IMG/VR virus record: IMGVR_UViG_3300032240_001498 | Location: 128,001-192,000 of that record | Strand: one strand, 5' to 3' | Length of the DNA: 64,000 nucleotides | Origin: a virus | Lineage: Duplodnaviria > Caudoviricetes | In this document: positions 1,635-36,915 of the stretch, piece by piece | How positions within the stretch are numbered: position 1 is the stretch's first letter | How the letters are laid out: every line of letters begins with the position of its first letter | The notes under the pieces: model-generated | Database searches by the model: none | Told to the model about the DNA's origin: nothing | The model's input: only the letters and a program-made list of their open reading frames with translations | Made by a program: the position numbers and the translations under genes

Positions 1635-1636
1635 TT

Positions 1637-4390: not shown

Positions 4391-4411
4391 AGTCTACAGT
4401 TAACAAGCGAA

Positions 4412-4417
4412 TAAATA
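4412..4417 (+). promoter_or_regulatory. Putative T4-type late promoter (TAAATA)
   Basis: TAAATA just upstream of ATG 4423; the same hexamer recurs before many structural genes in the window. Confidence 0.5.
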
Positions 4418-4422
4418 ACATT

Positions 4423-19485: not shown

Positions 19486-19878
19486 TTAAAATATTTCCGC
19501 CTTGCCATTGCCAAGACTGTTTACGTTGATGTAACCGACACCTCTTTGAGACATGTTAACATTTTCTTCCATTGCAACATCTCTACAAAGATCTTTGAAC
19601 CAGGCGTCAACTATTGCTTCTTCAGTGTCGCCTGTGTAACCGGACTCTCTTAATTTTACTATAAAATACTCGTTCCAGTCAAGCTCAAAAAAGCCATTAC
19701 GAATGTTATCTTCGTTTATATGTGTATTTAATACCGCAACATATGGCTCTTTTTTGAGTGTAGCCGCTTCTTTTGGCGGAAGTGTTTCGGTTACGACTTC
19801 TGCATATTTTTTAGCTTCAGCTTCCATTTCGGATTGGCTAGGCTTTCTTTTAAAAAACTGTTTGATTCTTTCTATCAT
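19486..19878 (-). CDS. Hypothetical protein
   Basis: 130 aa ORF tiling with neighbours. Confidence 0.7.
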   Translation of the reverse strand: MIERIKQFFKRKPSQSEMEAEAKKYAEVVTETLPPKEAATLKKEPYVAVLNTHINEDNIRNGFFELDWNEYFIVKLRESGYTGDTEEAIVDAWFKDLCRDVAMEENVNMSQRGVGYINVNSLGNGKAEIF

Positions 19879-20519: not shown

Positions 20520-21364
20520 TCGTTCTTGAAGAGTGGCACTTGTAGTCTATCACTGTATCTCCAGCCTTTTCGCATTGCCATTTCTGCCACTGCACGATTG
20601 TTAAGGGTATACACCCGCTCAACCCCACCAACAGGCATAACATACACAGGCCCTTTAAAACCTGCCGCACGATATTCTTCAACTGCTCGCTCTGCATCTA
20701 CAAGGTCCTCTTCTGTTGCTACGACAAACTTTAAATATGCATAACCAATATCTTCATAACTGCATACTACTTCGGGCTTAATTGCATCTTCCCAAGGTTC
20801 TCCTGAGCAAGGCAGTTTAGCACTGATACTGAATGTTAGAGCATTACGTCCACGGTCTTTATTACCTAGTGTCCAGTTTAACAAATATTGTCTAAAATCT
20901 TTTAATAGCCGCATTGTGCCGTTTGTTTCAAATGTAATTTCTTTTAGTCCTGCCATCTTCGGATGATCTAACAATGCAGGATATGCCTTCTGCCATCCTA
21001 ACATTGGCTCGCCGCCTGTGATAACAAGATGCTCGTCCTGCCATTCACCGTGCGGTAGCATTTCTATAATACGTTCTACAATACCATCAGTTTCGACCAA
21101 TGGACTAAGATCTTTAAAACGGGCATCCCAGCTGGCATAACTGTCACAGCCTGTGCTTACTAATGGCAGTTCATTATAGTCTTTGAATTCTAAAATACGC
21201 TCTGCAATGGCTTCACGTTCATTGGACAGTTCACCACGGGGCATACCAAAACCTTGACAGGTAAAGTTACAACCAAATGTACGCAAGAAAACAGAAGGGA
21301 CGCCCATATAACGTCCTTCGCCTTGTATGCTATAAAATAATTCTGCTAATTTAATCTTGCTCAT
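20507..21364 (-). CDS. queE: 7-carboxy-7-deazaguanine synthase (radical SAM)
   Basis: ELFYSIQGEG, FLRTFGC, ITGGEP, ETNGT, SAK, YLKFV, RLQ..L motifs; Cys motif CX3CX36C. Confidence 0.9.
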   Translation of the reverse strand: MSKIKLAELFYSIQGEGRYMGVPSVFLRTFGCNFTCQGFGMPRGELSNEREAIAERILEFKDYNELPLVSTGCDSYASWDARFKDLSPLVETDGIVERIIEMLPHGEWQDEHLVITGGEPMLGWQKAYPALLDHPKMAGLKEITFETNGTMRLLKDFRQYLLNWTLGNKDRGRNALTFSISAKLPCSGEPWEDAIKPEVVCSYEDIGYAYLKFVVATEEDLVDAERAVEEYRAAGFKGPVYVMPVGGVERVYTLNNRAVAEMAMRKGWRYSDRLQVPLFKNEWGT

Positions 21365-21584
21365 CTTCATCCTGTCTTTCTAAAAATTGTGTTACTTGAT
21401 CTTCTGCGTCTTGTAAGAATTCTGCGTATACGGTAAATGTAGCAACACCGTTGCTTGCGTGAATGTCAAACGGAATAGTACCGCGAGGAATCCAATTAGG
21501 TCCTACTTCACGCTTAATTTCAAACATCTGCATATTTTTAATCTTATGCATAGTTTGATCAAATATGTCTTTAGCTGTAGTCAC
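21351..21584 (-). CDS. Hypothetical protein
   Basis: 77 aa ORF with short overlaps at both ends. Confidence 0.65.
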   Translation of the reverse strand: MTTAKDIFDQTMHKIKNMQMFEIKREVGPNWIPRGTIPFDIHASNGVATFTVYAEFLQDAEDQVTQFLERQDEDEQD

Positions 21585-22261
21585 AGGTCACCTTTTAACG
21601 AATCCATAATTACTCTACGTTCTTTATTATACACTTGTTTTTGGAGAAAGTCAAGAAACTCTTGATGCTCCATCTTCTCTGCTTTATTTAGAATATTTTG
21701 ACATGCCCGCAAATAATATCTGCGTCTAGCGGCTTTGGTAATACCTTTAGCATCTTCTACAGCAAATTGGAAACTGCGTACTAGACAGTCTGCGGCCTCA
21801 CTAGGTTTGCCGTGCCATTCTACATCACCATCATTGGTAATAACTAGAACGGGTTTATTGATAGTGCTGTTAAATTGAATACTGTTGCTTGACATGGGCT
21901 GATTTATACCTATTCCTGCTCCAATAGTGTATCCTGCTTGATAACCTATGGCAGTATTATATGACCCCGATGTAGGATGCTGTAAGGCCTGATAACCAAA
22001 CCCTATGTTTGGATTGTAGCTAACAGGTTTAATCTGCTCTATAGTTCGGCGAGCGATAATTTCCTTTCCCCGGGATCGTATTACGGACACCGCCGATCGC
22101 ATCCTCGACGTCACCCTTTCTACGAGGGATAAGGTGGATATGAGGCCAGTTAACAGTTTGACCTGCACTTGGGCCATAGTTAAGTCCAACATTGAAACCG
22201 TCCCAAGTTCCGGCTTCCACCATTGCTTTACCTTCTCGAATCGCGTCTTCAAAAGCATCAT
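21581..22261 (-). CDS. Hypothetical protein with GYQA repeats; true start uncertain (233-nt overlap with HIT gene)
   Basis: C-terminal 150 aa fill the gap between genes; GGAG-6nt-ATG at 22261 lies inside the HIT gene. Confidence 0.6.
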   Translation of the reverse strand: MMLLKTRFEKVKQWWKPELGTVSMLDLTMAQVQVKLLTGLISTLSLVERVTSRMRSAVSVIRSRGKEIIARRTIEQIKPVSYNPNIGFGYQALQHPTSGSYNTAIGYQAGYTIGAGIGINQPMSSNSIQFNSTINKPVLVITNDGDVEWHGKPSEAADCLVRSFQFAVEDAKGITKAARRRYYLRACQNILNKAEKMEHQEFLDFLQKQVYNKERRVIMDSLKGDL

Positions 22262-22427
22262 TTAAAACTCCAATTGTATTATATTTAGGTACAAACAACA
22301 AATGTCCTGGCGTACACGGATATTTGTCATAGTATACTGCAATATGAAAATCTTCTTTGTAAACATTATCCCAAGGTGCGGTGCTATCCTCAATTGAATC
22401 GGGGATGTCGTTAAAAATCTTATCCAT
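22029..22427 (-). CDS. HIT family nucleotide hydrolase
   Basis: YPCTPGHLLFVPK, GFNVGLNYG..AGQTV, HxHxxP (HIHLIPR). Confidence 0.9.
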   Translation of the reverse strand: MDKIFNDIPDSIEDSTAPWDNVYKEDFHIAVYYDKYPCTPGHLLFVPKYNTIGVLNDAFEDAIREGKAMVEAGTWDGFNVGLNYGPSAGQTVNWPHIHLIPRRKGDVEDAIGGVRNTIPGKGNYRSPNYRAD

Positions 22428-23181
22428 GTATTTCCTTTAATGTTGGTGCATAGTTTCCGAGATGTTGTACAGTGATAGCACTGGCATTGATAGCAAATAC
22501 AATGGCCTTATGCATGTCTAAAGTATTTAGGTATTCGTATGTTAGTGCAGATAAAAATGTATCACCTGCACCGCATACGTCTGCTACTTCTACGTTCCTT
22601 GCACCGAACGCAAACTTGTCATAAATGACTCCGCGTTCACCGTAGGTAACAACTAATCCAGTAGTTGGAAAACTTGTAGCACGGCTATTTTCGAGTTCGT
22701 TAATTTTAATAAAGCATCCTTCTAATCTTGCTAGGTCTGTTTTCTTTGTATCGACAAAAATTGGACCAGAGAATGTACCACGTAGGTCCTCAATTAAATC
22801 GTAACTAACTGTACCTTTATTATAATCACTAATAACAATAGCATCGTAATCTGATAGTGTATCTTCTATTGTAAGCGGGAGTGATGCAACATCTTTATCA
22901 ATGCGAACTATTTGCTGTTTACTGCGAGTATCAATAAGCCTAGTTTTAGTAGAAGTTTCACGATGTAAAAATTTTACATTGCATCCTAATGCTTCTAAAT
23001 TCTTACGCACATTCCCAGCCATACCTTCTTTGACGATATCGTACTTTGGTACAAACACTGGCACAGGTGCTTCAGGACTTATACGATCTACGCTACCGTA
23101 TCTATAGACGTCGGTGCAATCATCCCCGACTAATAATATCTTGAATGATTTTTGTTGTTGAGTATTCATCGATTCTGTCAT
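22420..23181 (-). CDS. PfkB-family sugar kinase, RfaE/HldE domain I-like (heptose-7-phosphate kinase)
   Basis: RISPEAPVPV, GMAGNV, ISDYNKG, DVCGAGDTF. Confidence 0.85.
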   Translation of the reverse strand: MTESMNTQQQKSFKILLVGDDCTDVYRYGSVDRISPEAPVPVFVPKYDIVKEGMAGNVRKNLEALGCNVKFLHRETSTKTRLIDTRSKQQIVRIDKDVASLPLTIEDTLSDYDAIVISDYNKGTVSYDLIEDLRGTFSGPIFVDTKKTDLARLEGCFIKINELENSRATSFPTTGLVVTYGERGVIYDKFAFGARNVEVADVCGAGDTFLSALTYEYLNTLDMHKAIVFAINASAITVQHLGNYAPTLKEIHG

Positions 23182-23521
23182 ACCAAAAGATCTCTTTTAC
23201 ATATTGTCCTGCTACTACGCTCTTGCCTTTCCAATCACTGCCCTTGACCATTATGTCCGGTTTGTAAAGTTTAAGCAATCTGATTAGGTCTTCTTGACTG
23301 TCAAAAAATTCCACAATATCTACAGCCTTGAGATTTTGTAGCATTACCTTACGAAAGACTTGATCGTTAATTGGACGAGTATCGCCTTTGAGCTCTTTAA
23401 CCCTGCGATCAGTATCAATGCATACAATAAGATAATCGCCCAAACTACGAGCGGTGTTTAACATTGCTACATGCCCTGGGTGCAGGATATCAAATGTACC
23501 ATTAACTACTACGGTGGTCAT
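23120..23521 (-). CDS. Cytidylyltransferase-like protein, RfaE/HldE domain II-like
   Basis: NGTFDILHPGH (HxGH), KGDTRPIN, VKGSDW, STTKII. Confidence 0.85.
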   Translation of the reverse strand: MTTVVVNGTFDILHPGHVAMLNTARSLGDYLIVCIDTDRRVKELKGDTRPINDQVFRKVMLQNLKAVDIVEFFDSQEDLIRLLKLYKPDIMVKGSDWKGKSVVAGQYVKEIFWYDRIDEYSTTKIIQDIISRG

Positions 23522-23877
23522 TTTTGACTGTCACCTTTGCCTACACGATAATTGTCTTCTACAGAGTCTGGAGTAGATACTTCAATAACTGTACCTGCTT
23601 CGATACACTCTAATTGATGTGGCATACAGGGTGTGTTATGCCAAACAGCACCATCACGAACTTCTTTCTCGTGAACTTCGGCAGTAGCAGTATCAATCCA
23701 ACGGATAATAAATTTACCTGATTGTATGTACCAAGTTTCTTCTTTGTCTTTATGGAAGTGCATACTGAATTTTGCACCTGTGTTAAAGTTCATAAACTTT
23801 CCACAGTACTTGTCGTTAGTGGCCCAGATAAATTCTGAACCCCATCCTTTTGGAACTAAGCCTTTTAATTGTGTCAT
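23518..23877 (-). CDS. Cupin, mannose-6-phosphate isomerase-like
   Basis: KGWGSE, SMHFH..KEETW, PH, EVSTP. Confidence 0.8.
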   Translation of the reverse strand: MTQLKGLVPKGWGSEFIWATNDKYCGKFMNFNTGAKFSMHFHKDKEETWYIQSGKFIIRWIDTATAEVHEKEVRDGAVWHNTPCMPHQLECIEAGTVIEVSTPDSVEDNYRVGKGDSQK

Positions 23878-24125
23878 TCTGGTAATGGGTTAAATCTTTG
23901 TAGGAAACTTTCGAGATAGCAACTGTATTCGCGTACTTCGTTAGTTTCTTCTTTTGTTTCTTTAATATAATGTACCCAAGTGTGTCCTTCTAATTCAATA
24001 GTATGTAACACATGGAATACATCTCGTCCAGTGCCGCCCCACCTGCTTCCATCTTTTGGACGCTTAGGGGGTTCGGTTGCTTTAATTCTATCTTCTGTTG
24101 TAAAAGTTGTCATTTTGTCCACCAC
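23874..24125 (-). CDS. Hypothetical protein
   Basis: 83 aa ORF; start may be ATG 24113. Confidence 0.6.
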   Translation of the reverse strand: MVDKMTTFTTEDRIKATEPPKRPKDGSRWGGTGRDVFHVLHTIELEGHTWVHYIKETKEETNEVREYSCYLESFLQRFNPLPE

Positions 24126-24610
24126 TCCTCATAAGGAAATTCTATCCAAACATCTTTCTCTGCCTTGTTAACTTCCATGCCGGCAAAGTCCATTTTAACA
24201 TTGCATTCACTTGCAAGGTTATCTACTACTACAGCAAACTTTACAGTTTTGTTCCAAACGTCATTATCCCAACGTATGGCACTCGGTAATGCACTAGAGC
24301 GCCAATCTTCCATGAGCCAGTTAAATGTAGCACCAGTATCGTTGATGTCGTCTACAACAAGAATATTTGCGCCATCATATGCATCTGAGGCTAGGCCACA
24401 ATTACTTACAGTATCACCACCGTCACGTAGACTGATATCTAGACTATTCATCTTAATATTAAAATATTGACTGATCATGACAGCAGGCAACAGCCCACCA
24501 CGACCGATGCCTACTATGATATCAGGCCGCCAATCACTGAGCATGATATCTCTACATATTTTTGCAATTAAGCCATTAAACTGTGGCGGTGTTAGTATTA
24601 GCTTGTTCAC
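24110..24610 (-). CDS. Type I phosphoribosyltransferase (xanthine/guanine PRT-like)
   Basis: IVGIGRGG, PRPP loop ILVVDDINDTGAT, WIEFPYE. Confidence 0.85.
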   Translation of the reverse strand: MNKLILTPPQFNGLIAKICRDIMLSDWRPDIIVGIGRGGLLPAVMISQYFNIKMNSLDISLRDGGDTVSNCGLASDAYDGANILVVDDINDTGATFNWLMEDWRSSALPSAIRWDNDVWNKTVKFAVVVDNLASECNVKMDFAGMEVNKAEKDVWIEFPYEEWWTK

Positions 24611-25067
24611 GTCTGCCTTTCAAATAAGTTTCGTTATGTATCCATTTGTTGTTAACTAAAAATCCCCATTCACGCTTTTTAGGACCTGGCATGAATAGTG
24701 TCCAAGGTGTAACACCTGGCTCTAATTCAATACGGTGATAGCTTTCTGGTTCGCAGGTTCTAAAATGACCTGGACCGCGCCATACCTTATACTCACCCCA
24801 CTTTTCACCTAGGGTATTAATCTTAGGAATCCATTCCCAGTAGCCACCTTTAAGGATTAGGGTAGCATATGGCCAAGGGTGATCATGGACTTCGTCCGGA
24901 TCGGATTTTAAAAATTTATGTAGGAACACGTTGAACGGAAACCATGTACGTTCTTTGAGAAATATATAATATCTCTCTAGGTACGGCTCATCGTCAACAC
25001 GATCCATAATAATTCGTTTACGTCCTAGTTTGTCTAGGGTATCAAGTAGTCTGTCTGTTAGTTTCAT
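24576..25067 (-). CDS. Cupin-fold protein (HDHPW family)
   Basis: HDHPW...GGYWE...YHRI; start moved to MKLTD. Confidence 0.75.
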   Translation of the reverse strand: MKLTDRLLDTLDKLGRKRIIMDRVDDEPYLERYYIFLKERTWFPFNVFLHKFLKSDPDEVHDHPWPYATLILKGGYWEWIPKINTLGEKWGEYKVWRGPGHFRTCEPESYHRIELEPGVTPWTLFMPGPKKREWGFLVNNKWIHNETYLKGRREQANTNTATV

Positions 25068-25248
25068 TTTCGCTCTTACAAAGTTCATACACTATTTTAA
25101 ACTGTTCCCAAGATTTTTGCAACCCCGGAAACTCCGAACACAATCTTCCTAGTGTAAGTGAATCTACTCGATATTGTACAGCCCAGTTGTGTTGAGTTTC
25201 CAAATCGATAGTTTCACTCGGTTCAAATTTTTTGTGTTTTACAATCAT
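25042..25248 (-). CDS. Hypothetical protein
   Basis: 68 aa ORF coupled to neighbours. Confidence 0.6.
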   Translation of the reverse strand: MIVKHKKFEPSETIDLETQHNWAVQYRVDSLTLGRLCSEFPGLQKSWEQFKIVYELCKSENETNRQTT

Positions 25249-25541
25249 CAGATCTTCAATGTTTCCATTGTGATAATCTTACCAATCTCTTTTCCAAGAT
25301 CTTTGTCATCTGTGATAATATGTAACGTTCTATAACTTCGATCTTTGATACGATCATAGAAGTTGGTTTCAACTACCATACCGCCCTGGGCCTTGTATGC
25401 AGTTATACGAATACCTTTATCACTGTCGAGACTGTGATCATCAACTGACAATGCGTTACGACGTGATAATTTACTCTGAACGACTTCAGCTTCGTCACTT
25501 AGCATCCAACTACGTAGTTTATGCTTGAACCAATTAATCAT
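25248..25541 (-). CDS. Hypothetical protein
   Basis: Start moved to MINWF (25541), overlapping upstream stop. Confidence 0.65.
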   Translation of the reverse strand: MINWFKHKLRSWMLSDEAEVVQSKLSRRNALSVDDHSLDSDKGIRITAYKAQGGMVVETNFYDRIKDRSYRTLHIITDDKDLGKEIGKIITMETLKI

Positions 25542-25710
25542 ATTTCTTAGCTTCGTTGATTTTTGTGATGTGATCGGCTTCGTACTTTGCCAATGCTTCA
25601 CGGAATTCATCTTCACCTAATCCGTGCCATCCACAGCAATCGCCAGTTGGGCTACGACCACAACCGCATGTTCCAATTTTTTCACCTTCTTCTGGTACTC
25701 TTACTTGCAT
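25534..25710 (-). CDS. Small CDGSH-like iron-sulfur protein (variant)
   Basis: CGCGRSPTGDCCGWH resembles CxCx2Sx3PxCDGSH; AAGGA SD before ATG 25710. Confidence 0.6.
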   Translation of the reverse strand: MQVRVPEEGEKIGTCGCGRSPTGDCCGWHGLGEDEFREALAKYEADHITKINEAKKYD

Positions 25711-25723
25711 GATTTTTCCTTTA

Positions 25724-26623
25724 TTATAAGTCTGGGTTGATGGCAAGTCCTTGCCATTCTTTAATTTTAATTTCTTCAGTTTCTGGCGTATCATCTTGCC
25801 AAGAACTGATCCAACGTGAGCCGGTCCATTTAGCTTGATAAGTGTAACTGTTCTTGCCAGTAGTCTTAACCATATAGTTGCCTTCACGTACGGGCTTGAT
25901 TTTCTTAGAGAACCAATCAGTCATTGGATACTCGATGTCGTCCATGTTACGATACTTTTCCCAATTGCCTGTTAAGTTTTGTGAGTGGGCTATATAAAAG
26001 CCAAAGTCACTACTCTTGCCGTCTGTATTGCCACCCCAGTTATCAATAGTTTCACCATCGTACTCGACACCATTAACAAGCTCTTCACCGTCAATCTCGT
26101 CATAGTTTAGAGTTAACTTGGTAATGTCAAATGGCATAGTTAGTGGAAGATCGGTTTCAAAGAATGTGCCTTTTTCGTTTGAGTTACCGATGAACACTAC
26201 AGTACCAGCTGGCTTCTCGTCAATCCAGGCTTCATCACCGCAGGACCATTCTGGTTCATTTTCGTCTCCACCACTGATATCTTCTAGACTACGTTCATAG
26301 ATGATGTTGCCATTTTCATCTTCAATTTGAAGTGTACCGGCATTACGGCTAACACCATGTGCGTGTGCCATGTCATCACACTCGTACCAGCTACCTGGAG
26401 GAAACGGTTGCATGTCTTCTGGGATATCGTTTTCATCGGCGTAGTCGCTGTCCCAAGCATAGTCGCTAAGATCAAGTCTGCGATGTTTGAAGTAATCATA
26501 AATCTTACGATCTACAGTACCCATAACTTTTTCACCACCATAACCCCACATTGAAATTTTGTAGGTACGTGGGGTCCATTTTAGGACCTGCATTAGTTGT
26601 TCTTTTTCCTCTAGCGTTGCCAT
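25724..26623 (-). CDS. Hypothetical acidic protein
   Basis: 299 aa, AGGAG SD. Confidence 0.75.
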   Translation of the reverse strand: MATLEEKEQLMQVLKWTPRTYKISMWGYGGEKVMGTVDRKIYDYFKHRRLDLSDYAWDSDYADENDIPEDMQPFPPGSWYECDDMAHAHGVSRNAGTLQIEDENGNIIYERSLEDISGGDENEPEWSCGDEAWIDEKPAGTVVFIGNSNEKGTFFETDLPLTMPFDITKLTLNYDEIDGEELVNGVEYDGETIDNWGGNTDGKSSDFGFYIAHSQNLTGNWEKYRNMDDIEYPMTDWFSKKIKPVREGNYMVKTTGKNSYTYQAKWTGSRWISSWQDDTPETEEIKIKEWQGLAINPDL

Positions 26624-26634
26624 ATGATCTCCTT

Positions 26635-27378
26635 TTATCTTGGGGCAAATTCTTGTTGTAATTTAATGTTGTCAAAGAACTCTTTCTTTGTATTACCATC
26701 GGTATTAAAAGCACCTTTAAGTACTGTGGTCTGTGTTAACGAACTGTGCGCCATAATACCACGATTCTCACAGCAACCGTGTACCGCTTGAATATAAACA
26801 CCTAGGTCTTTGGCTCCTGTTGCCTTTTCGATTTCCCTAGCAATGTCATTGCAAAGTTCCTCCTGGAGAGTACCTCGTCTTGCACACCACTGTGCAATTC
26901 TTGTGTACTTAGACAAGCCGATGAGCTTCTGAGCGGCAATAATGCCAATATAGGCAACACCAGTAACGGGTTGGTGATGATGACTACACATAGAACGAAG
27001 CTCACTTCGAACAACCAACATACCTTCATAACGGTCCGCCGAGTCGTTTGGAAATGCTGTTGCGTCTGGTGCTGGTTCATATCTTCCTGCCATTATTTCA
27101 TTAAAGTACATCTTGGCAAGTCGTCTTGCTGTGCCTTTGGAGTTTGGATCGTTTTCGCGATCAATTAACAAGCAGTCTAACACTTTTTCAAATGCTTCTG
27201 TTGTTTCATCGATCAGCTGTTCTTTCATTTTGACATCAATGTATTCACTGATGTTATCTCCGGCCCAAAATCTTTTACCATTGCGTTTCATTACAAAACC
27301 CAAATAGTTGTGTGCTGTGCCTTCTTGATATCCGCTGTCGCCGTACATGGCGTCGAGTGCTGTTGCTTTATTTGTCAA
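26635..27378 (-). CDS. folE: GTP cyclohydrolase I
   Basis: SMCSHHHQP, GLSKYTRIA, QE, HGCCENRG; TTG start with GGAG SD. Confidence 0.95.
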   Translation of the reverse strand: MTNKATALDAMYGDSGYQEGTAHNYLGFVMKRNGKRFWAGDNISEYIDVKMKEQLIDETTEAFEKVLDCLLIDRENDPNSKGTARRLAKMYFNEIMAGRYEPAPDATAFPNDSADRYEGMLVVRSELRSMCSHHHQPVTGVAYIGIIAAQKLIGLSKYTRIAQWCARRGTLQEELCNDIAREIEKATGAKDLGVYIQAVHGCCENRGIMAHSSLTQTTVLKGAFNTDGNTKKEFFDNIKLQQEFAPR

Positions 27379-27419
27379 TTTATTATTCTCCGAGTTAATG
27401 ACGTGGATGTCTATATGTT

Positions 27420-27448
27420 ATTATACTGAATTATTTAGGTTAAGTCAA
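27420..27448 (-). promoter_or_regulatory. sigma70-type promoter for folE, with TAAATA in the spacer
   Basis: TTGACT-N17-TATAAT; TAAATA at 27432-27437. Confidence 0.85.
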
Positions 27449-28228
27449 GCGAAGCAGAGTATTTTTCTTTACGGCCGCATCCAACACATTCATTTGGACA
27501 TTTTGACTTTCTGCATATTTCAATAATGCTGAGGTATCTTTAGGAAAACATGCACCACCGAATCCAAAGGAACCATCAGGCCCTGGAACTTGCATATGAC
27601 TATTGCCGATTCTAACATCGCTTTTAATCATAGACGCAATCTTATTGTAGTCACAATCACTGGCTTTTGCTAGAAAATACAATTCGTTCATAAATGTAAC
27701 CTTAGTGGACATGAATGTGTTGATTGCATATTTTGCCAAACTTGCTTCTGCAATAGTGCAATGGTGAACGTGTTCCAAACCACCTTGTGTTTCTTTAATA
27801 ACACTTTCGGCTAGATCTCTATAGGCTTTAATGCGACCGCCGATGATGGCAAACTTGCCATTGGCATAATCTCTAGCGGCATTAGCGGCAGTTAGAAATT
27901 CTGGCGCATGTACAAGATTTGGATATCGGTTGTTTAATCTAGTATATGTATCAGGTGGTGCTGTGCATTTACTGATAATAACGCCTTCAAACTTGATTAT
28001 TTCCAACTTTGCTAGAATGTCTTCTAAGATGGTAGTATCACAAGTACCGTCCTCGTCTTGCGGAGTAGGAACACAGATAAAGACACCATCACATTGTGAT
28101 AGATCTTGGAATGGATCTCGACCACGTGCTTTGTCATTGTCGACTAATACTAATTGATCTTCATTCCAAAATGCCTGCTTGATAGCGTTGCCTACAAATC
28201 CTAATCCTACAATTCCTATTTTACCCAT
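27440..28228 (-). CDS. UDP-glucose/GDP-mannose dehydrogenase family protein, lacking C-terminal domain
   Basis: GIVGLGFVG, ICVPTP, KCT, PEFL, KYAINTF, GFGGACFPKD; only 262 aa. Confidence 0.9.
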   Translation of the reverse strand: MGKIGIVGLGFVGNAIKQAFWNEDQLVLVDNDKARGRDPFQDLSQCDGVFICVPTPQDEDGTCDTTILEDILAKLEIIKFEGVIISKCTAPPDTYTRLNNRYPNLVHAPEFLTAANAARDYANGKFAIIGGRIKAYRDLAESVIKETQGGLEHVHHCTIAEASLAKYAINTFMSTKVTFMNELYFLAKASDCDYNKIASMIKSDVRIGNSHMQVPGPDGSFGFGGACFPKDTSALLKYAESQNVQMNVLDAAVKKNTLLRLT

Positions 28229-29316
28229 TTTAATAATTCCCCAGCACTAAAGAAGTGCTCTGTTAAATCGTGTGTTTGTTTTTTTAGCTGTGGAATAAAT
28301 TGATTATAATTGTCCATATACTGCATAATCTTCCCACACAACTCTGGACGATATGCCTTGTATGCTTCAAATGATTCTGTCCATACACTTGGATATCTGA
28401 ATGTATCGTAATACATTTCAGTATAACTAAGTCGATCCGGAACCATTGGAATAGCATCTACAATAGCGCCTTCATAACAACTAATGCCAAGTGTCTCTTG
28501 TAGATTTGCACTAAACACTAATTTAGCTTCGCCTAATAGGTTATGATATTCATTCTTGGTTAGATGTTGATCCTGACATACAACAAATTCATATTGTGGC
28601 AAGTGTTCTTTTAGGTCTCTAAAAATTTCAACTTGTTTCTCAGGAGCGATACGATGTGGAAATAAAATAAGATCACGTTTAGGCATGTTCTTGTACCCTG
28701 TTAACGTAGTATCCATATACTCCATGGGCCAACCGGTGCGTATAATTTTAGTATACTCACCCGCTAAGATCTCACTTAGTTCTTCCTCATACCAGGGATT
28801 TTCAGTTTGGAATCCACCGTTAAGTAATTCTCTATGAAACAACTCAATATGAAAGTTGGTAGCAAAATAGTTATGATCAAATGCATAAAAGAAACCCTGT
28901 TCAGCATGTCTAACCCAAGGTTTATTACCAACTAGGCGTCCTAAGAAATCTTGAGGATCATATGATCCAGCATGCCATAAGCCGTGTGTAGTTACTGGAA
29001 TACCCAGTAACTCGCTCATGTATTTTAAATTTATAATGCCTGGATGCCAAGCATCAGTAAAAATAAAGTGGTCGCCGGGATGAACGGCTCCGTTACAAAA
29101 TAACCTGCCCATTTGTTCAACTTGGCTAGACTTGTATATATTGGTTCCACCAAAATTAAGAAAAGCACCAGGAGTAGTGGCTGTAGGAATATCCGTAGGG
29201 CCAGAGATAACTTGAACATTGTGTCCTGCCTTTCGTAAGAGAGCAGGTACATGAGTCTTCCATTGTCCCGTGTACCTAGTTTCTACTGCTTCTAAATCAA
29301 TTAGAAAAACGGTCAT
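28216..29316 (-). CDS. GT-B fold glycosyltransferase (GT4-like)
   Basis: FPHRIAPEKQ and Ex7E motif (ETLGISCYE). Confidence 0.8.
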   Translation of the reverse strand: MTVFLIDLEAVETRYTGQWKTHVPALLRKAGHNVQVISGPTDIPTATTPGAFLNFGGTNIYKSSQVEQMGRLFCNGAVHPGDHFIFTDAWHPGIINLKYMSELLGIPVTTHGLWHAGSYDPQDFLGRLVGNKPWVRHAEQGFFYAFDHNYFATNFHIELFHRELLNGGFQTENPWYEEELSEILAGEYTKIIRTGWPMEYMDTTLTGYKNMPKRDLILFPHRIAPEKQVEIFRDLKEHLPQYEFVVCQDQHLTKNEYHNLLGEAKLVFSANLQETLGISCYEGAIVDAIPMVPDRLSYTEMYYDTFRYPSVWTESFEAYKAYRPELCGKIMQYMDNYNQFIPQLKKQTHDLTEHFFSAGELLKWVK

Positions 29317-29557
29317 TATTATATGGCCTTGGATTCTTACCTAGGTAAGGTTTACGTTCACCGTTTCCACGGTAACCTTTTCCACCATTTTTCCTATAAG
29401 TGAAATCCCTATAGGCCTTAGACTTATACAAGTCTGCTTGGTTGAAATCGATCATTTCAAAACGGCAATGATCGTGCCATGCCTCAAGATCATCAAAGAT
29501 CTTGCTGACTTCAGGCTTCATAGTCAGATATTTGTCGAGCCATTTTGGCTGTGCCAT
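29297..29557 (-). CDS. Hypothetical protein
   Basis: 86 aa ORF inside the modification operon. Confidence 0.7.
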   Translation of the reverse strand: MAQPKWLDKYLTMKPEVSKIFDDLEAWHDHCRFEMIDFNQADLYKSKAYRDFTYRKNGGKGYRGNGERKPYLGKNPRPYNNDRFSN

Positions 29558-29569
29558 TTTTTAAGTTCC

Positions 29570-30001
29570 TTAAATTACAATGGATTGTGACGGGCGAGTA
29601 AGATTATAATGAATGACACATCCGTTCTCACCGTCCTCGGATACGTCAATTATTACAGCACGGTTTGGATACCTTGCCGCAATCTGGGAATACAAGTCGT
29701 CTGCGATCATTTCGCAACTCTTGTAGTTTAATTCTAATACGGAATTTTGACCATTATACAACGATATGAGCCATCGCTTGAACTGGATGAACTCGATGTC
29801 CCTGTCATTGTGGAACACATCGATTGACACCCTAAAATGGAAAATGTGACGATGAGGAGTACCAAGGAACGATACATCATATTCATCTCCTGTAGCAAGT
29901 GCTGGGTCTGTTGCCGCGGCAGGGTAGCAGTGAATGCCTTCCTTCTGGAACGTAACCCAAATTTGTCTTTGTGCGGCTTCTTTAATTGTTTCTATAGTCA
30001 T
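29570..30001 (-). CDS. QueD-like T-fold protein, probably DpdL-type (predicted CDG decarboxylase)
   Basis: GIHCYP, LGTPHRHIF (LxxxHRHxF, which I recall as the DpdL signature; verify), SCEMIA, V.EDGENG. Confidence 0.65.
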   Translation of the reverse strand: MTIETIKEAAQRQIWVTFQKEGIHCYPAAATDPALATGDEYDVSFLGTPHRHIFHFRVSIDVFHNDRDIEFIQFKRWLISLYNGQNSVLELNYKSCEMIADDLYSQIAARYPNRAVIIDVSEDGENGCVIHYNLTRPSQSIVI

Positions 30002-30549
30002 TTGATAATCTCGTCTTTACCATATTGATCCCAACTTGTAAACTTATTTCTATCAAGTAGGTCGTGGAGGTTATGGCACCATACTCCAGGATTTGTAGCG
30101 GCAAAATCTACATCATCAATCTTAATTGTAGCATTATATCCTAGCTGTGTCAAGTAGGGCAATTTAACCGAAATCTGTGGAATAAACTGACGATGTTCGA
30201 CGAGGCCGCTTTCTAATAGACCTTCTACCTGTGCTACATCGAGATCCAATGTACACCAGTATCCTGAATCAAGACATTCTTGGATCATATATTCCCAAGG
30301 AGCCCACCCATCAGCATCGTTAGTTTCAAGTTTAGGAAAACTTTGATTAGCACCAAAGTAGATATGTTTGATACGTTTACTCTCATCAAGCAATGCTTGA
30401 GTATCGTTTGCAATATGCAGTACTGTTTGAGGATCATGTGTGCCCACTACAAACAGAGTTTTCATTCCGTAAGCAGGAGTCTTTTCAATCTCTACGCCTG
30501 TAAAGAACATGATGTCTGTTGCAACACCAGAATCGTAATCTCGTTTCAT
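29998..30549 (-). CDS. Conserved-looking hypothetical protein in the dpdA operon
   Basis: 183 aa, alternating beta/alpha pattern, ATGA overlaps on both sides. Confidence 0.7.
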   Translation of the reverse strand: MKRDYDSGVATDIMFFTGVEIEKTPAYGMKTLFVVGTHDPQTVLHIANDTQALLDESKRIKHIYFGANQSFPKLETNDADGWAPWEYMIQECLDSGYWCTLDLDVAQVEGLLESGLVEHRQFIPQISVKLPYLTQLGYNATIKIDDVDFAATNPGVWCHNLHDLLDRNKFTSWDQYGKDEIIK

Positions 30550-31124
30550 CTTTCGTTATCCCACCAAAGCCAGCCAATTAAAATATATTTGTCGAGGTTG
30601 GCAGTAATCTGCCCTCGATGAATATGTGTGTATGCAGTTGGGAACAAAATTGTTTTGCCTTTGACTGCGTCAACAACTCTGTTCTGATGCAAAAATTCAG
30701 TTCCGCCATTTGGTACGGTATTCAAATAGGTTAAAAATGTTATTGCACGATCGCAAAACTCATGACCGCCGTCAATATGCCATGCGTGATAACCTGCACT
30801 AGGTTTATACCACTGTATTTGTGGTAAATCACGTATAGTAAACTTTCCAGCGTGTTCATATATTTTAGCATCTGTACAGTATTTGTCAATGAATCCGGAC
30901 AATTCGGTATGATAATTTGGCCATTTAAAATCCTGTGGCTTGCCCAATGTTCTAGCATCACCTAAATGGAAATCAACGCTGTCTTTATAATCTGGTCTAA
31001 TTTGTTCGTCCGAACCTGTAACACCTGGATTGGTTAAACCATTACTATCTGCAAGTCTAAAAAGTCTTAACAGTTCGTCACAGATAGTAATGTCTGATAA
31101 TTGATATTCAGCTATAAAGTCCAT
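30546..31124 (-). CDS. 2OG-Fe(II) oxygenase (prolyl-4-hydroxylase-like)
   Basis: QIQWY...WHID...FLTYLN...GGTEF...FP...HIHRG...KY. Confidence 0.85.
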   Translation of the reverse strand: MDFIAEYQLSDITICDELLRLFRLADSNGLTNPGVTGSDEQIRPDYKDSVDFHLGDARTLGKPQDFKWPNYHTELSGFIDKYCTDAKIYEHAGKFTIRDLPQIQWYKPSAGYHAWHIDGGHEFCDRAITFLTYLNTVPNGGTEFLHQNRVVDAVKGKTILFPTAYTHIHRGQITANLDKYILIGWLWWDNER

Positions 31125-32767
31125 TAGGCATTATCAATTTCTAATGCATCGAGTTTGTCTTCGTCAAGCTCTGGCATTGCAGTTACAGGACTTACAGTTT
31201 TATCTAACACTACTTCTTCAGTATCAAATAGACTTGTAAAGTTATTTTCGGCATTACCGCCGCGTAGGCGCATACCCATCATGTTAGACAACATGGGTTT
31301 AGCATCTTCAATCATCTGGAAAGCTTCTGCTTTAGATTTTGTATTGAACAATTCTTCTACAAAACGGCTAAAGTAAAGAATATTACGTGGAACCCAATCT
31401 GAATACTGGTCGCTACCTGTTTCAGAGTCTTTGAGTTTCTTCCAATGACGCCAATCAGGTTGAGCCTTTGCAGTTTCAATGTCCATTAATTGATTAGCAC
31501 GTTGTACAGCAACAATATGGCATTCAACATTATGACCCATCATTAGAGCATAAGCAAAACTATCCCAACTTGTTCTGTTTGGAATCTTATCAAGTTTATT
31601 CTTACGGGGAACAACATGATAGTGTGCCTCATTCAAGTGATCAAATTTAACACCGCCTAATTCTGCATCAGTTTTACGAACACCTAGATCATAATAAGCA
31701 ATATCACCCATTGTTAATCTACGACCAATTGATGATTCAAACGGGAATGGAATATCCGAACCTGACAATGCTTTATTGTCCGGCGCCTTATCCATAATAA
31801 CTGACCAACGTTTAGTTGTATGTTGTGCGTTGGTATATACCAAACCGTGTGCAGTAGCAATAAACGGACTTGCACAGTCAAAACTAATTGTAAGCTCTGG
31901 ATTGATATGCTTACGGATCTGACGTTGGATCAAGGTCAAGTAACATGCCCAGTCTAATTGTGCTGTACCTAAGAAGTGAATCCAGTTCTTACCAGTTAAC
32001 AATCCATCTTCACGCATGGTCATTAGCCGCTTGAGCGTAATGTCCATCTTACACATGTTAGCACCACCAAAGGCCCAACCTTCAGCTGACGGGTTTTTAT
32101 TTTCACCCCATGTTTTGTTTGGATCGCTAAATTGTTTAACACCGTTGTACCAATCTTCTGCTGAATCCCAGTCCCAACCTTGTAGCACGTTTAAGAACTT
32201 GGTTTGTCCTAGACGATTTTCTAAGAAGTATCTGTTGTTGTACTGCGTTTTTTCTAAACAATCTTCAACAGTCTTAAGACCGGTCTTTGGACTGTGTACA
32301 TGGTCACAAGCCCAGGTCGGAACGTCTAGCATCATAGACCAATCAGCAGTAAGTTCAAGCCATTCTAAAATACTTTGACGAGTTTTAGTTGCACTAGGAC
32401 CTTCGAAGTCTAACCAATCAAATTTAAGAACACCCTTACCGATCTGATATCCACCGGAGTCACCTAAGATCATCGTGTTGTTTCTATCACGTTGTTGGAT
32501 CATCGACTCCTGCGTCAAACTTTTATTCAAGTCTAACTGTGCATGACCTGCAGAGTATAGACCATACTTGTATGTAAAATATCCTTCTTCAGGATTAAGG
32601 AAGTTCATACCTTCGATGCCGCGATCAAATCCTGCCGGAATTCGATCATCAGGAATAAACTTTTCTAATCTTTGTTTTGCAATGTATGTACTATAGAAAG
32701 AGCTAATAGCTGGCAAATAGACAGCATAGTCTTTCTGTAGTGGAGTTAAATTAACTTGTTGTTTCAT
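31124..32767 (-). CDS. dpdA: TGT-fold DNA-guanine transglycosylase (DpdA-like)
   Basis: All TGT motifs in order: DSGGYQ, MMLDVP, VLQG, AFGG, IHFLG, SFDCASP; co-located with folE/queE and directly after polymerase and clamp. Confidence 0.8.
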   Translation of the reverse strand: MKQQVNLTPLQKDYAVYLPAISSFYSTYIAKQRLEKFIPDDRIPAGFDRGIEGMNFLNPEEGYFTYKYGLYSAGHAQLDLNKSLTQESMIQQRDRNNTMILGDSGGYQIGKGVLKFDWLDFEGPSATKTRQSILEWLELTADWSMMLDVPTWACDHVHSPKTGLKTVEDCLEKTQYNNRYFLENRLGQTKFLNVLQGWDWDSAEDWYNGVKQFSDPNKTWGENKNPSAEGWAFGGANMCKMDITLKRLMTMREDGLLTGKNWIHFLGTAQLDWACYLTLIQRQIRKHINPELTISFDCASPFIATAHGLVYTNAQHTTKRWSVIMDKAPDNKALSGSDIPFPFESSIGRRLTMGDIAYYDLGVRKTDAELGGVKFDHLNEAHYHVVPRKNKLDKIPNRTSWDSFAYALMMGHNVECHIVAVQRANQLMDIETAKAQPDWRHWKKLKDSETGSDQYSDWVPRNILYFSRFVEELFNTKSKAEAFQMIEDAKPMLSNMMGMRLRGGNAENNFTSLFDTEEVVLDKTVSPVTAMPELDEDKLDALEIDNA

Positions 32768-32784
32768 GGATACCTTTAATCATA

Positions 32785-33519
32785 TTAGGCCTGCGCTGGT
32801 AAAATGTATTCGTATGTTGCTAAACCGCTATCTAACGTAATCTTTAGTGCGCCTTGATTACTAATACTCAGTTTAGTATTATTAACATCTGCAATTTTCA
32901 AGATGCTTAATACCTGTGCAACTGGCCAGCTTAGATTAGCTGTAATCTTACTTGTAAGACCGTCTGCAAATACAAACTCACCTGCGTGTGTATTAACATC
33001 ACCAAATGTAAACTTCAATTTGTCGCCATCTGTTTTTGCAACAAATGTTGAGTGTTCTGAGTTTGCACTTGCTTGGAAGTTAAAACGCTGTACACTTGCT
33101 ACTGTAGGAGTAATGGTGATATCCCAGTTAACACCTTTGAACTTAGGAACCTTAAGTTTTTCTTCAATAACTGCTTGGTTCATGAAGCGATAATCGTTCT
33201 TGAAGTCACCGCCTTTGTTTTCAAAGTGCAATCCTACAGGAATATCTTCACCGTTGCGCTGACCCTTAACAAGAGTGATCTTTGCATCCTCTTTGTATTC
33301 TGGGCAGTCCAAATGTATCTTTAGTTTGTTAAGTTGTGGCATACCAAAAATACCAACCATGTCTGGTTGTGCATTTGCAGTTTCTGCTGACAGGATAATT
33401 GAGCGGTCACCAGCGACAGAGTCAATTTGAGTTTTGTCTTCTGTACCAGTAATCTTAACTACTTCTAAAAATCCTAGATTGTGCGTATGTGATACGATGT
33501 CTTGTAAAATATCTTTCAT
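32785..33519 (-). CDS. Sliding clamp (gp45/PCNA-like)
   Basis: 244 aa next to family B polymerase; C-terminal LKITLD...YEYILPAQ. Confidence 0.7.
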   Translation of the reverse strand: MKDILQDIVSHTHNLGFLEVVKITGTEDKTQIDSVAGDRSIILSAETANAQPDMVGIFGMPQLNKLKIHLDCPEYKEDAKITLVKGQRNGEDIPVGLHFENKGGDFKNDYRFMNQAVIEEKLKVPKFKGVNWDITITPTVASVQRFNFQASANSEHSTFVAKTDGDKLKFTFGDVNTHAGEFVFADGLTSKITANLSWPVAQVLSILKIADVNNTKLSISNQGALKITLDSGLATYEYILPAQA

Positions 33520-33571: not shown

Positions 33572-36241
33572 TTATTCAAATGTGAACAAATTACCAAACG
33601 TATTATTTTGCGTGGTTGAGTTCAAGTCCCATTCCAACACACCAATCAAGTTATCAAGTTTGTTATTGATAATTGTTGTTTCCATTTCAGAATGATCAAA
33701 TGGTAATTCCTGGAACCACTTGGGCAATCTTAATTCGTCTACGGGATATGCAATACTTGTATAGCCCATAGGGTTATCGCGAACTTTGCAAACAATAACT
33801 TTCATTCCGTCAACAATCTGCATAGAATACTTGTCACCGTTCATTTCTCGCAACACGTTCCAGTTAATACTTGCACGTACATGACCTGGCATATTGGCCT
33901 TACCTGCTTTCTTTTCCTTCTCGCGATATTCAGTAATATTGTTAGCACGTTTAGGAGATCCTTTTTCCCAACCCGGTCTAACTTTAAACTCAGTTCGGAA
34001 TTCGCCAATGCGGTCTAGGATCTCTTTTTCCTGGCTACCGTTGAGTACTTTAGTTAGGATTTCTTCCAAGAACTTCTGCATAAATTCCGGAGTATCCGAA
34101 CGCTTCAAATCCAAGCCCATGGCCTTGATCTTGCCTGGCTTACCATCTATGTCTGCACGTTTGTTTTCTTTATCGTAATAAAGAACAGCATAACGCTTCT
34201 TGGTAATGAACAGGCCTTTAATAGCAACCAATTCACGACCTGCTTTGATGACCTCGCCACGGCTCTTTGGACAATGGAAGAAGTCCAACATCATCTGCGG
34301 GAATGTTCCGTTTACTTCGTCTGCAATCTGATTATACAGTTGAACAACAGTTTCTTTATCCCAAGGCAATCGACCTTTATCGATATCAGTCTTTAATGTT
34401 GTATAAGCCGAGAAATATGCAGAGTCTGTATCACCGTAAATGATGCTACGGCCTTTGTAGTCATACTCTCCGCAGATTACTTCATTTATTTTTGCGGCCA
34501 TGTGACGAGCAATGCATCGGCCTGTAAGAGTTGTGGATTGGCCAATACGCTTATCAAAGAACCTGCAACCAGCGTTAAGAATAGCACCGTATAAAGAGTT
34601 AAGGTTAATTTTCTTAACCAACTGACGTTTGTCCCAGTATTCTTCTTCAATTTTGTTTCCTGCATTAATAGCTTCCTTTAGTTTGGCCTGCATGTCTTTA
34701 CGTTCGCTGTACCAGCGTTTTAGCAAGCCGGGGATAATCCCTTCGTTTTCGTATGTGAAAATTGTACCGTTAGCACTGAGCATCCACGGCTGATTACTTT
34801 CATAAATCATCTCATAGATTTGAGCACCACTCAGCACGTCAACTTCGCCGGACTCCCATTCAACAGTAATGTCATTAGCTTTGTCTTTGGCCATAACAAA
34901 CTCATATTCGTTAGAACCAAACTTACCTTCCCATGCCGCGGCAAATGAATTGCCCTTGGCCATTTTAGCATCAATTTCTGCTTGGGTGTAATCTTGACGT
35001 AACTGTCCGACAATAGTTTCTGGACCCATGTTAAGCGCACGAATCGCTGACGGATAAAGTGAGTTAATATCGACTGATCCAATCCAGTCGTGAAGTCCTT
35101 TTTTAGGATATGCAACATAAGCACCGGCCGCTTGGTTGTCTGCGCTTTCATCACGCTTTGGGCGACTTGGAACTATCAAGCCTCTGTGGTGGGCTTCATT
35201 AACAATGGCCTGTTCAGTTACAGCCACAGCACCCATTGTGGTCTGTAGCAACACAGTACATTCATGTGCCAGCGTATTAGCAAGATCAATAAACTTTAGT
35301 TTCTTGTCTAGTTTGTCAAGTAGTGCAGTATCTTGTCTGTTGTACTCAATAAACTTGCGGAAGTCATTATTGTATAGTTGATCAAGTGTGCCTTCGTAGA
35401 CTGTTTTGTTTTCACCAACTTCCATCTCACCAATAGCATCTAGTCGATATGTATGGCGTTCTTCATATGTGTACTTGCGATACAGTTCAAGACTGTCTAA
35501 GTGTACACGACCAACAAAGTCATAAGTGACTGCGGCTTTACCATACTTTTCATATTCACGTTTCTTTGGAAATTGATCCCATAAACAGAAACGACGAGTA
35601 TCTTCCTTGCTCAATACCTTTGTAACGCGGTTAACAGTATAGGGAATATCATAACCTTCACTGTTCCAGCCGCTGATGATATCTGCATCCTCAATTAGCT
35701 TTAGGAAAGTGTCAAGCATTTCTCCTTCGCTTTCGAATAGATGCGTGTTAGGAAATTCTTCAACTAACTTTTCAGCATCCTCCATTTTTAAGCCCTTTGG
35801 AGGAATAGCTAACGTAACCATTGTTTCCATCCATTGTAGGTAAACAGAGATCGCAGTAATTGGCATAAACGCATCTTCTGGACTTGCGTAGCCACGTTCT
35901 GGATCAAAGTCTACCTCAATGTCAAAAAACGCCACGTTTAGTTTAGGAGCATCTTTACCTAGATAGTTTTCTTCTAGGATACGGAATGAGGCATTGATGT
36001 CACTTTCAAACAGTCGGTGACCTGAATGGATTTTTTGTTCTTTGGCAAATTCCTTGAATGATTTACAAGAAACTTTTGACAGGCTTTCGCCATAAATTGA
36101 TTTGTACTTGCCCCTATTATCTGGATAATAGAATACGTACCTTGCGGGATAGTCGACATAGATTCGACCTTTTTTTGGATCACGCTCAACGACACGTACA
36201 CGGTCATTGTCACGATCCCAGATGGCATCGATATAACTCAT
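33572..36241 (-). CDS. Family B DNA polymerase with 3'-5' exonuclease
   Basis: ExoI FDIEVD, ExoII GWNSEGYD, ExoIII YNRQD, DINSLYPS, KINLNSLYG, YGDTDS; no intein-sized insert. Confidence 0.97.
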   Translation of the reverse strand: MSYIDAIWDRDNDRVRVVERDPKKGRIYVDYPARYVFYYPDNRGKYKSIYGESLSKVSCKSFKEFAKEQKIHSGHRLFESDINASFRILEENYLGKDAPKLNVAFFDIEVDFDPERGYASPEDAFMPITAISVYLQWMETMVTLAIPPKGLKMEDAEKLVEEFPNTHLFESEGEMLDTFLKLIEDADIISGWNSEGYDIPYTVNRVTKVLSKEDTRRFCLWDQFPKKREYEKYGKAAVTYDFVGRVHLDSLELYRKYTYEERHTYRLDAIGEMEVGENKTVYEGTLDQLYNNDFRKFIEYNRQDTALLDKLDKKLKFIDLANTLAHECTVLLQTTMGAVAVTEQAIVNEAHHRGLIVPSRPKRDESADNQAAGAYVAYPKKGLHDWIGSVDINSLYPSAIRALNMGPETIVGQLRQDYTQAEIDAKMAKGNSFAAAWEGKFGSNEYEFVMAKDKANDITVEWESGEVDVLSGAQIYEMIYESNQPWMLSANGTIFTYENEGIIPGLLKRWYSERKDMQAKLKEAINAGNKIEEEYWDKRQLVKKINLNSLYGAILNAGCRFFDKRIGQSTTLTGRCIARHMAAKINEVICGEYDYKGRSIIYGDTDSAYFSAYTTLKTDIDKGRLPWDKETVVQLYNQIADEVNGTFPQMMLDFFHCPKSRGEVIKAGRELVAIKGLFITKKRYAVLYYDKENKRADIDGKPGKIKAMGLDLKRSDTPEFMQKFLEEILTKVLNGSQEKEILDRIGEFRTEFKVRPGWEKGSPKRANNITEYREKEKKAGKANMPGHVRASINWNVLREMNGDKYSMQIVDGMKVIVCKVRDNPMGYTSIAYPVDELRLPKWFQELPFDHSEMETTIINNKLDNLIGVLEWDLNSTTQNNTFGNLFTFE

Positions 36242-36245
36242 AATT

Positions 36246-36306
36246 CTCCTTACCGCTTATGGCCGGCTAACCTTCAACATTGCGATTTATGGCTCGCTGA
36301 ACCGTT
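36246..36306 (-). promoter_or_regulatory. Polymerase 5' leader with two tandem hairpins (loops GCCAUAAA / GCCAUAAG) abutting the SD
   Basis: GCGA-GCCATAAA-TCGC (36282-36297) and GCCG-GCCATAAG-CGGT (36252-36267), then AAGGAG; TAAATA at 36315-36320. Confidence 0.6.
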
Positions 36307-36320
36307 CTCAAATATATTTA

Positions 36321-36614
36321 TTAATTAACCAACATGCGGACAAGACCGATTGAGTCAATGGTTGTTAGCAAGATGTAATTAGCCAACATACCAAATGACT
36401 TCCGAGTCCATGAAGCCCACGCATACATAGCACAGCCACTAATCCAGATAGGATATAGTACAAGAAGAGGGGGATTAGGGACTGTGACTGCCATTGTGAT
36501 ACTACAGCCAATAGATATAGCCCAAGCAAGGAGCTCAACACAAAAGCGAAGTCCGTTGCTATTCCAATCATCCTTGATCCACTCTAATGTTGGCTTAAAG
36601 AATGTATCAATCAT
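36321..36614 (-). CDS. Small multi-pass membrane protein
   Basis: Start moved to MIDTFF; about three hydrophobic segments. Confidence 0.7.
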   Translation of the reverse strand: MIDTFFKPTLEWIKDDWNSNGLRFCVELLAWAISIGCSITMAVTVPNPPLLVLYPIWISGCAMYAWASWTRKSFGMLANYILLTTIDSIGLVRMLVN

Positions 36615-36915
36615 TATCGCCGTTGCGGTTTGGATTTTGTGCATCATAATCGCTTTGACGGATTGCGTGACCGCTGATATCAACGATAGTTTCTAAGTCA
36701 TCGAACTCAGTAAACACACGTTCCCAATCGCCCTTCTGTGCGATTTTGATAGCTTTTTTAATAATGCTGGGTTTAACTTCTAGTTCTTCTGCGACAGCTT
36801 TGATAGTGTCGTTCAAACCTTCGTTGAGGTCTTCAATTTCTTGTAGGACAGTAACGCCTTCAGAAATAAGTTGTTTGATTTTTGCTTGCTCTGGTGCGCC
36901 GTATGCTTTGCTCAT
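36607..36915 (-). CDS. Putative dsDNA-binding protein (T4 DsbA-like)
   Basis: Helical ...IEDLNEGLNDTIKAVAEELEVKPSIIKKAIKIA pattern; position upstream of polymerase. Confidence 0.55.
   Translation of the reverse strand: MSKAYGAPEQAKIKQLISEGVTVLQEIEDLNEGLNDTIKAVAEELEVKPSIIKKAIKIAQKGDWERVFTEFDDLETIVDISGHAIRQSDYDAQNPNRNGDND

Follow-up and report, generated by a model that had tools for sequence, protein, structure and literature searches.

Tandem minimal pseudoknots in the leader of a family-B DNA polymerase gene of uncultured jumbo phages: a candidate translational operator

The stretch of DNA analysed here (the window, 64,000 nucleotides) belongs to a 200.6-kb IMG/VR viral contig whose completeness is estimated at 55%. 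The features surrounding the leader of interest are collected in Table 1. The ORF that lies 3′ of this leader had been called a DNA polymerase in a sequence-only reading of the window, and by Pfam its 889-aa product is indeed an enzyme of family B (DNA_pol_B, 9.4e-37; DNA_pol_B_exo1, 7e-18). In tblastn comparisons, the polymerase is 51% identical to that of the Sinorhizobium jumbo phage Phosso and ~42–43% identical to those of the 121Q-/RaK2-type phages and Atu_ph07. Megablast found no match to the locus among GenBank phages.

The stop codon of the upstream ORF and the polymerase ATG are separated by 79 nt of minus strand, which read AUAAAUA-UAUUUGAGAAC-GGU-UCA-GCGA-GCCAUAAA-UCGC-AAUGUUGAA-GGU-UA-GCCG-GCCAUAAG-CGGU-AAGGAG-AAUU-AUG. 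The TAA stop shares one base with the ATAAATA box, and the bases just 5′ of the first GGU are AAUAAAUAUAUUUGAGAAC. A TAAATA box followed by two hairpin units had been described at 36246–36320, and both are present there, on the minus strand. The remaining details of that description were likewise confirmed: the 4-bp stems GCGA/UCGC and GCCG/CGGU, the near-identical loops of 8 nt each (GCCAUAAA in unit 1 and GCCAUAAG in unit 2) and the direct abutment of the second hairpin on AAGGAG.

Table 1. Features of the polymerase locus and its leader (window coordinates; S1, pseudoknot helix; S2, hairpin stem; SD, Shine–Dalgarno)
Feature	Position	Strand	Basis or detail
DNA polymerase gene, family B (T4 gp43-like), 889 aa	33572..36241	−	ATG 36241-36239
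SD AAGGAG	36246..36251	−	read from sequence; immediately 3′ of the S2 3′ strand of unit 2
Unit 2, SD-proximal pseudoknot	36252..36272	−	R2 27.8 bits, E 4.8e-5
Unit 2, S1 5′ strand GGU	36272-36270	−	followed by linker UA
Unit 2, S2 5′ strand GCCG	36267-36264	−	
Unit 2, loop GCC	36263-36261	−	
Unit 2, loop AUAAG	36260-36256	−	
Unit 2, S2 3′ strand CGGU	36255-36252	−	
Unit 1, distal pseudoknot	36282..36303	−	R2 30.7 bits, E 6.8e-6
Unit 1, S1 5′ strand GGU	36303-36301	−	followed by linker UCA
Unit 1, S2 5′ strand GCGA	36297-36294	−	
Unit 1, loop GCC	36293-36291	−	S1 3′ strand
Unit 1, loop AUAAA	36290-36286	−	
Unit 1, S2 3′ strand UCGC	36285-36282	−	
ATAAATA box, T4-late-type promoter-like	36315..36321	−	motif statistics and kept position in relatives
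Upstream ORF, 120 aa from TTG, no Pfam match	36321..36683	−	stop TAA 36323-36321

The ATAAATA heptamer is under-represented in the window (8 copies versus 21.8 expected), and most of its copies in the 200-kb genome are found 15–35 nt before an SD and ATG. At the position of the box, relatives keep TATAAATA, TAAATA or TATAAT. Judged by its distribution, the box appears to behave like a promoter of the T4 late type (TATAAATA). Given this late-type behavior, the polymerase mRNA probably begins a few bases 5′ of unit 1, with the transcript start predicted ~6–8 nt 3′ of the box. The other ATAAATA sites in the window are located at 4411, 6466, 14109, 17747, 43462, 52507 and 57490, and one would not expect such a box at a gene of replication like that for the polymerase. 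The minus-strand genes directly 3′ of the polymerase gene are tightly packed (19875–32767 and 32785–33519) and may share the polymerase promoter, because no other minus-strand ATAAATA is encountered until 17753. Their products include a 244-aa protein of unknown function, a 547-aa putative DpdA-like protein that has no Pfam match, 2OG oxygenases, a UDP-sugar dehydrogenase, FolE and a radical-SAM protein. In each of the 10 large relatives checked, the gene for the 547-aa protein comes after the polymerase gene.

Considered as a single sequence, the leader has a minimum free energy (MFE) fold that is not better than those of shuffled sequences (z = 0.24), and the loop word GCCATAAR is not enriched in the window (7 occurrences versus 5.2 expected). 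The fold statistic is what one would expect if the hairpins were a chance resemblance or an element acting at the level of DNA, for example a protein-binding palindrome or an origin hairpin. Comparison with related loci leads to a different conclusion. The first set of relatives comprises 80 loci with polymerases 75–85% identical, and three scans with more distant queries add ~240; more than 200 distinct leaders of these related viral contigs retain the element. The first 69 unique leaders have both hairpins and loops that are constant as GCC-N-N-A-A-N, with stems that include GCGA/UCGC, GAUCA/UGAUC, GGCCA/UGGCC and GCGG/CCGC for hairpin 1 and GCCG/CGGU, UUGCAA/UUGCAA, GUGA/UCAC and UGUAG/CUACA for hairpin 2. 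In the MAFFT alignment and in a model-based alignment of 100 leaders, 86–88% of the stem cells were paired, as compared with 21–43% when the partners were slid, and the observed covariation was reached by none of 500 shuffles. RNAalifold independently predicted both hairpins, with compensatory double changes at eight of eight pairs, and all four pairs of the unit 2 core stem are compensatory.

A covariance model of the tandem arrangement (R1) found exactly one match per source in 100 related loci (682 kb), always just 5′ of the polymerase start. Because the comparative evidence is decisive, the element is real despite an insignificant single-sequence fold, and we consider its structure to be secure with very little room for doubt. 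The covariation of both stems in homologous polymerase leaders, together with the fixed loops, also bears out the earlier suggestion that RNA structure is under selection here. An origin in chance or in a DNA-level function is correspondingly most improbable: massive compensatory change combined with conserved loops is the opposite of what a DNA palindrome site would show, the matches occur once per locus, and frequent G·U and U·G pairs mean that the fold is possible on the mRNA-sense strand only.

The MFE structure for 36273–36301 (minus strand) contains an additional UUCA:UGAA pairing around hairpin 1 (−13.6 kcal/mol versus −10.8 kcal/mol for two simple hairpins), and an extension of this kind had been proposed from the single-sequence fold. 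Relatives do not keep it, and the pairing competes with the GGU:GCC helix.

This latter helix defines the architecture of the element. Each unit is a minimal H-type pseudoknot, in which the GCC of the loop pairs with a conserved GGU upstream of the hairpin; the assignment follows from the covariation of GGY/GCC to AGY/GCU. In the wider leader set, where the upstream triplet was located by a rule blind to the loop, the SD-proximal units of 233 unique leaders comprise 112 with GGU/GCC, 38 with AGU/GCU, 5 with GGC/GCC and 4 with AGC/GCU. The totals are therefore 117 GGY/GCC and 42 AGY/GCU with no discordant unit (159 to 0; neither G..U nor A..C combinations occur). Distal units show GGU/GCC (67), GGC/GCC (20), AGU/GCU (5), AGC/GCU (1) and GGU/ACC (3), a concordance of ~96 of 97 units having a loop of the GCC, GCU or ACC type, and the sole GGC/ACC case is a hairpin of another type. 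For the three pseudoknot pairs of unit 1, an alignment of 100 leaders (A3) contains GC 92/AU 5, GC 100 and UG 74/CG 19/UA 3, and the few remaining cells come from rows that are displaced by one column.

The five distal units with AGU...GCU occupy four separate places on the polymerase tree. On the 230-row tree, switches between the A-U and G-C states number three for the proximal and four for the distal unit, and both sides always change together; this amounts to at least seven concordant switches, although recombination could lower the count of those that are truly independent. Extension of the pseudoknot helix beyond 3 bp finds no support in the leaders judged by eye, where the base before GG and position 4 of the loop show no consistent pairing.

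The unit plan that emerges consists of an S1 of 3 bp (RGY with GCY), an L1 of 1–3 variable nucleotides, an S2 of 4–7 variable base pairs, no L2 and an L3 of the form NNAAN. In unbiased alignments the two A residues of L3 are invariant, and they presumably dock in the S1 minor groove. S1 and the AA dinucleotide are far more constrained in sequence than the hairpin stems are. The near-identity of the loops, on which the sequence-only reading had laid weight, is thus constant across leaders, but the loops are not simply a sequence for protein recognition: they are alike because their GCC pairs with the upstream GGU.

The spacing of the two units and their placement relative to the SD are also conserved. 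Loop-to-loop distance is 29 nt in 58 of 88 tandem leaders and 28–30 nt in 81 of them, with stem lengths varying. The SD-like tetramer begins −3 to +5 nt from the end of the proximal S2 (n = 168), with 164 of the 168 cases falling between −3 and +3 nt, and it overlaps the proximal stem in 41 of these units. In one sister clade, the 3′ strand of S2 (CGG or UGG) is itself part of the GGAG sequence.

The element is also restricted to a single gene. At a threshold of >25 bits, the matches of the single-unit model R2 are limited to the two units of the polymerase leader per genome in the 200 kb of the present phage, in nine other large related contigs and in a 100%-complete genome of 399,796 bp. No third unit was detected elsewhere in these genomes, where the remaining matches have E > 0.01 and are at chance level. 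The best of the extra matches (G006, E 0.011) is located inside a 784-aa ORF and was dismissed. Searching 35800–36800 against Rfam 15 with cmscan (E ≤ 10) returned only a noise match to a snoRNA, outside the leader, so the element does not correspond to a described Rfam motif, and we found no description of it in the literature. The element is uncatalogued and widespread in a clade of uncultured jumbo phages, and its structure, conservation, position and uniqueness are directly established.

Three leader architectures can be distinguished among the relatives. Tandem pseudoknots characterize the clade of the present phage; other leaders have a different 5′ hairpin followed by a single pseudoknot near the SD (GGC..GCC or AGY..GCU); and a third group lacks a leader, with the polymerase gene beginning next to or within the end of the ORF before it. 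The duplication that had been proposed from the present sequence is therefore genuine for this phage but limited to one clade, with only the SD-proximal unit, or none, in related clades. Given the overlap or direct contact of the polymerase gene with the ORF before it in leaderless relatives, translation of their polymerase genes is probably coupled. The loci concerned are L204, L205, L212, L214, L215, L223, L224, L293, L322, L334 and L336 (at about 390–403), and the start codon is often TTG. In one group of sister-clade loci (L268, L273, L274, L280, L284, L296, L299, L306 and L316, at about 330–360) the distal element reads GUC-UC-GCCG-GAC-NNNAAR-CGGC. Judged by eye, this GUC...GAC element may be a further pseudoknot of this design in which U-A replaces G-C as the middle pair. 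In other sister clades the distal hairpins are unrelated (GAGUCG...CAUG).

It is conceivable that nothing binds this leader. A 5′ pseudoknot could block 5′-end-dependent decay and the SD-proximal pseudoknot could fix a modest rate of initiation, both independently of any factor. The promoter-like box ~6–8 nt before unit 1 would place structure at the very 5′ end of the transcript, the sister clades that swap the distal element for unrelated hairpins keep its position, and every conserved base can be explained by the fold. A generic stabilizer, however, needs neither a sequence-specific 3-bp helix and an invariant AA maintained over hundreds of sequences nor a duplicated unit at a fixed spacing of 29 nt, and restriction to one gene would not be expected when hundreds of genes share the promoter type. 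We regard a factor-independent role as unlikely, while giving it appreciable weight.

The small size of the pseudoknots and their location invite comparison with riboswitches. Like preQ1-I (RF00522), the units are H-type pseudoknots of very small size whose third loop is rich in A, positioned next to the SD, and the present genome encodes 7-deazaguanine synthesis. Two such aptamers in tandem could control access to the SD according to whether a nucleotide-related ligand (such as a 7-deazaguanine, one of its intermediates or a dNTP) is bound, and would then constitute an undescribed riboswitch class. Tandem arrangements are known among riboswitches, and a 7-deazaguanine DNA-modification cluster lies directly downstream, tightly packed on the same strand. 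Unlike preQ1-I, however, the element has its long helix as stem 2 rather than stem 1, has no L2 and no conserved pocket bases, gives no cmscan match to that family, and is not associated with deazaguanine genes. This last point follows from the DpdA-like gene, which comes after the polymerase gene whether or not a relative has the leader; as gene order is independent of leader presence, a link to the 7-deazaguanine cluster was dropped. The absence of any Rfam riboswitch match even at E ≤ 10 and the scarcity of invariant unpaired bases that could form a pocket, a consequence of an L1 that varies in length and sequence and of the missing L2, also argue against ligand binding, and we consider a riboswitch to be quite improbable.

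A second comparison can be made with guanidine-II (mini-ykkC), in which two hairpins, again with conserved loops and freely varying stems, are likewise arranged in tandem, the second of them beside the SD. The ACGR tetraloops of guanidine-II kiss each other, whereas the loops here are GCYNNAAN and pair within their own unit, as indicated by the intra-unit AGU/GCU covariation. No Rfam match to guanidine-II was obtained.

Closer parallels are provided by protein-binding leaders. In T4, gp43 binds a hairpin and an RBS-overlapping sequence in the leader of its own mRNA (PMC3014915). The operators of T4, RB69 and RB49 are, like the present element, situated in the leader of a T4-type family-B polymerase gene, where they adjoin or overlap the RBS; they consist of a short-stem hairpin with a loop of 6–8 nt, are unique to that gene and are dispensable in some relatives. 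Indeed, some relatives of T4 do not autoregulate gene 43 (PMC3014915). The operator loops of T4, RB69 and RB49 carry UAAC or UAAA, of which the 3′ AC or AA bases are critical (PMC3014915). Loops with YAA(A/C/G) are found in T4 (AAUAACUC) and RB49 (GUAAAU), whose leaders we read, and in the present phage (GCCAUAAA/G). More generally, the present 8-nt loops carry (A)UAA(A/G) or CAA(A), as do T4, RB49 and a SELEX variant, yet they belong to two hairpins, each of them a pseudoknot supported by covariation. The T4-type operator is a single hairpin of 16–18 nt, in contrast to two pseudoknot units with an upstream GGU here, and a review reports no evidence of a pseudoknot in the gene 43 operator (PMC3014915). 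With filters off, R2 has no match in the polymerase leaders of T4 or RB49 and only chance-level matches elsewhere, which indicates that there is no sequence homology. The analogy to T4 is nonetheless reasonable for a candidate operator.

Precedent for regulatory pseudoknots in 5′ leaders comes from T4/T2 gene 32 and from the E. coli rpsO (S15) operator, where an H-type pseudoknot is an autoregulatory protein site that controls initiation (PMC3014915). The genes and the binders differ, and the pseudoknot of gene 32, at a site far upstream, serves to nucleate cooperative binding, whereas in the present phage two minimal knots of 3 bp plus 4–7 bp abut the SD.

We tentatively favor a gene-specific translational operator at which a bound factor, most simply the polymerase, represses synthesis, and would give this explanation slightly less than an even chance of being correct. 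It is favored because the element is structured, confined to one gene, placed against the SD with which it sometimes shares bases, built around a constrained short helix and AA, duplicated at a fixed spacing, and can be lost where coupling takes its place. The ~70-nt 5′ leader would start just 3′ of the late-type ATAAATA promoter and fold into two tandem minimal H-type pseudoknots, in each of which the 3-bp GGU:GCC helix would stack on the variable stem of 4–7 bp. The second pseudoknot would end at, or overlap, the SD. Binding of a trans-acting factor would stabilize the fold and hinder access of the 30S subunit, thereby limiting polymerase synthesis. Most parsimoniously, this factor would be the polymerase itself, making control autogenous as for gene 43 of T4, RB69 and RB49.

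What we infer is that the box is a promoter and where the 5′ end lies, that the effect is repressive, and which factor binds the leader, if one does. The fold alone need not repress, since the SD is unpaired in the present leader. Specific recognition of the short helix and AA is suggested by the fact that these are far more constrained than the stems. Against a bound factor, it should be noted that the conserved GGY, GCY and AA can all be explained by an RNA tertiary fold without protein. As several related lineages lack the element, its contribution would be one of dispensable fine-tuning.

The structural and positional evidence that points to the polymerase would apply equally to another phage RNA-binding protein, either a replisome component or a regulator, and a dimer or a protein with two binding domains would fit two units at a fixed spacing. 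The ORF just upstream, however, has no RegA-type Pfam domain, and one would expect several targets for a general regulator, whereas the unit is unique in the complete genome. An operator for a protein other than the polymerase thus seems rather unlikely.

To our knowledge, T4-type coliphages are the only experimentally documented case of a replicative polymerase that controls its own synthesis through its mRNA, and we know of no structure of a gp43–operator RNA–protein complex. The leaders described here constitute a far better comparative data set, with hundreds of natural variants of a compact two-unit candidate pseudoknot operator from uncultured giant phages, and the natural 'one-unit' and 'no-unit' leaders supply built-in controls. 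If the polymerase binds, this would be a tractable system for RNA recognition by family-B polymerases; if it does not, the element would represent a new class of protein- or ligand-responsive RNA. A riboswitch, if that were the true explanation, would make DNA polymerase synthesis responsive to a small molecule, for instance a nucleotide or an intermediate of 7-deazaguanine synthesis from the adjacent cluster. In either case, the element deserves its own Rfam family, and in this phage group it can usefully mark where the polymerase gene starts.

The polymerase leaders of T4, RB49, Phosso, Atu_ph07, 121Q and RaK2 contain no such unit. The leaders of phages 121Q and RaK2 (L344, 90–120, and L345, 95–125) have instead a GCCUCC...GGAGGC hairpin and a run of U, which resemble a terminator and are followed by a plain SD. 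In Atu_ph07 (L084, 1501–4470), the polymerase is annotated as two adjacent CDS, 1501–3198 and 3217–4470, from which it appears that the gene is split or interrupted.
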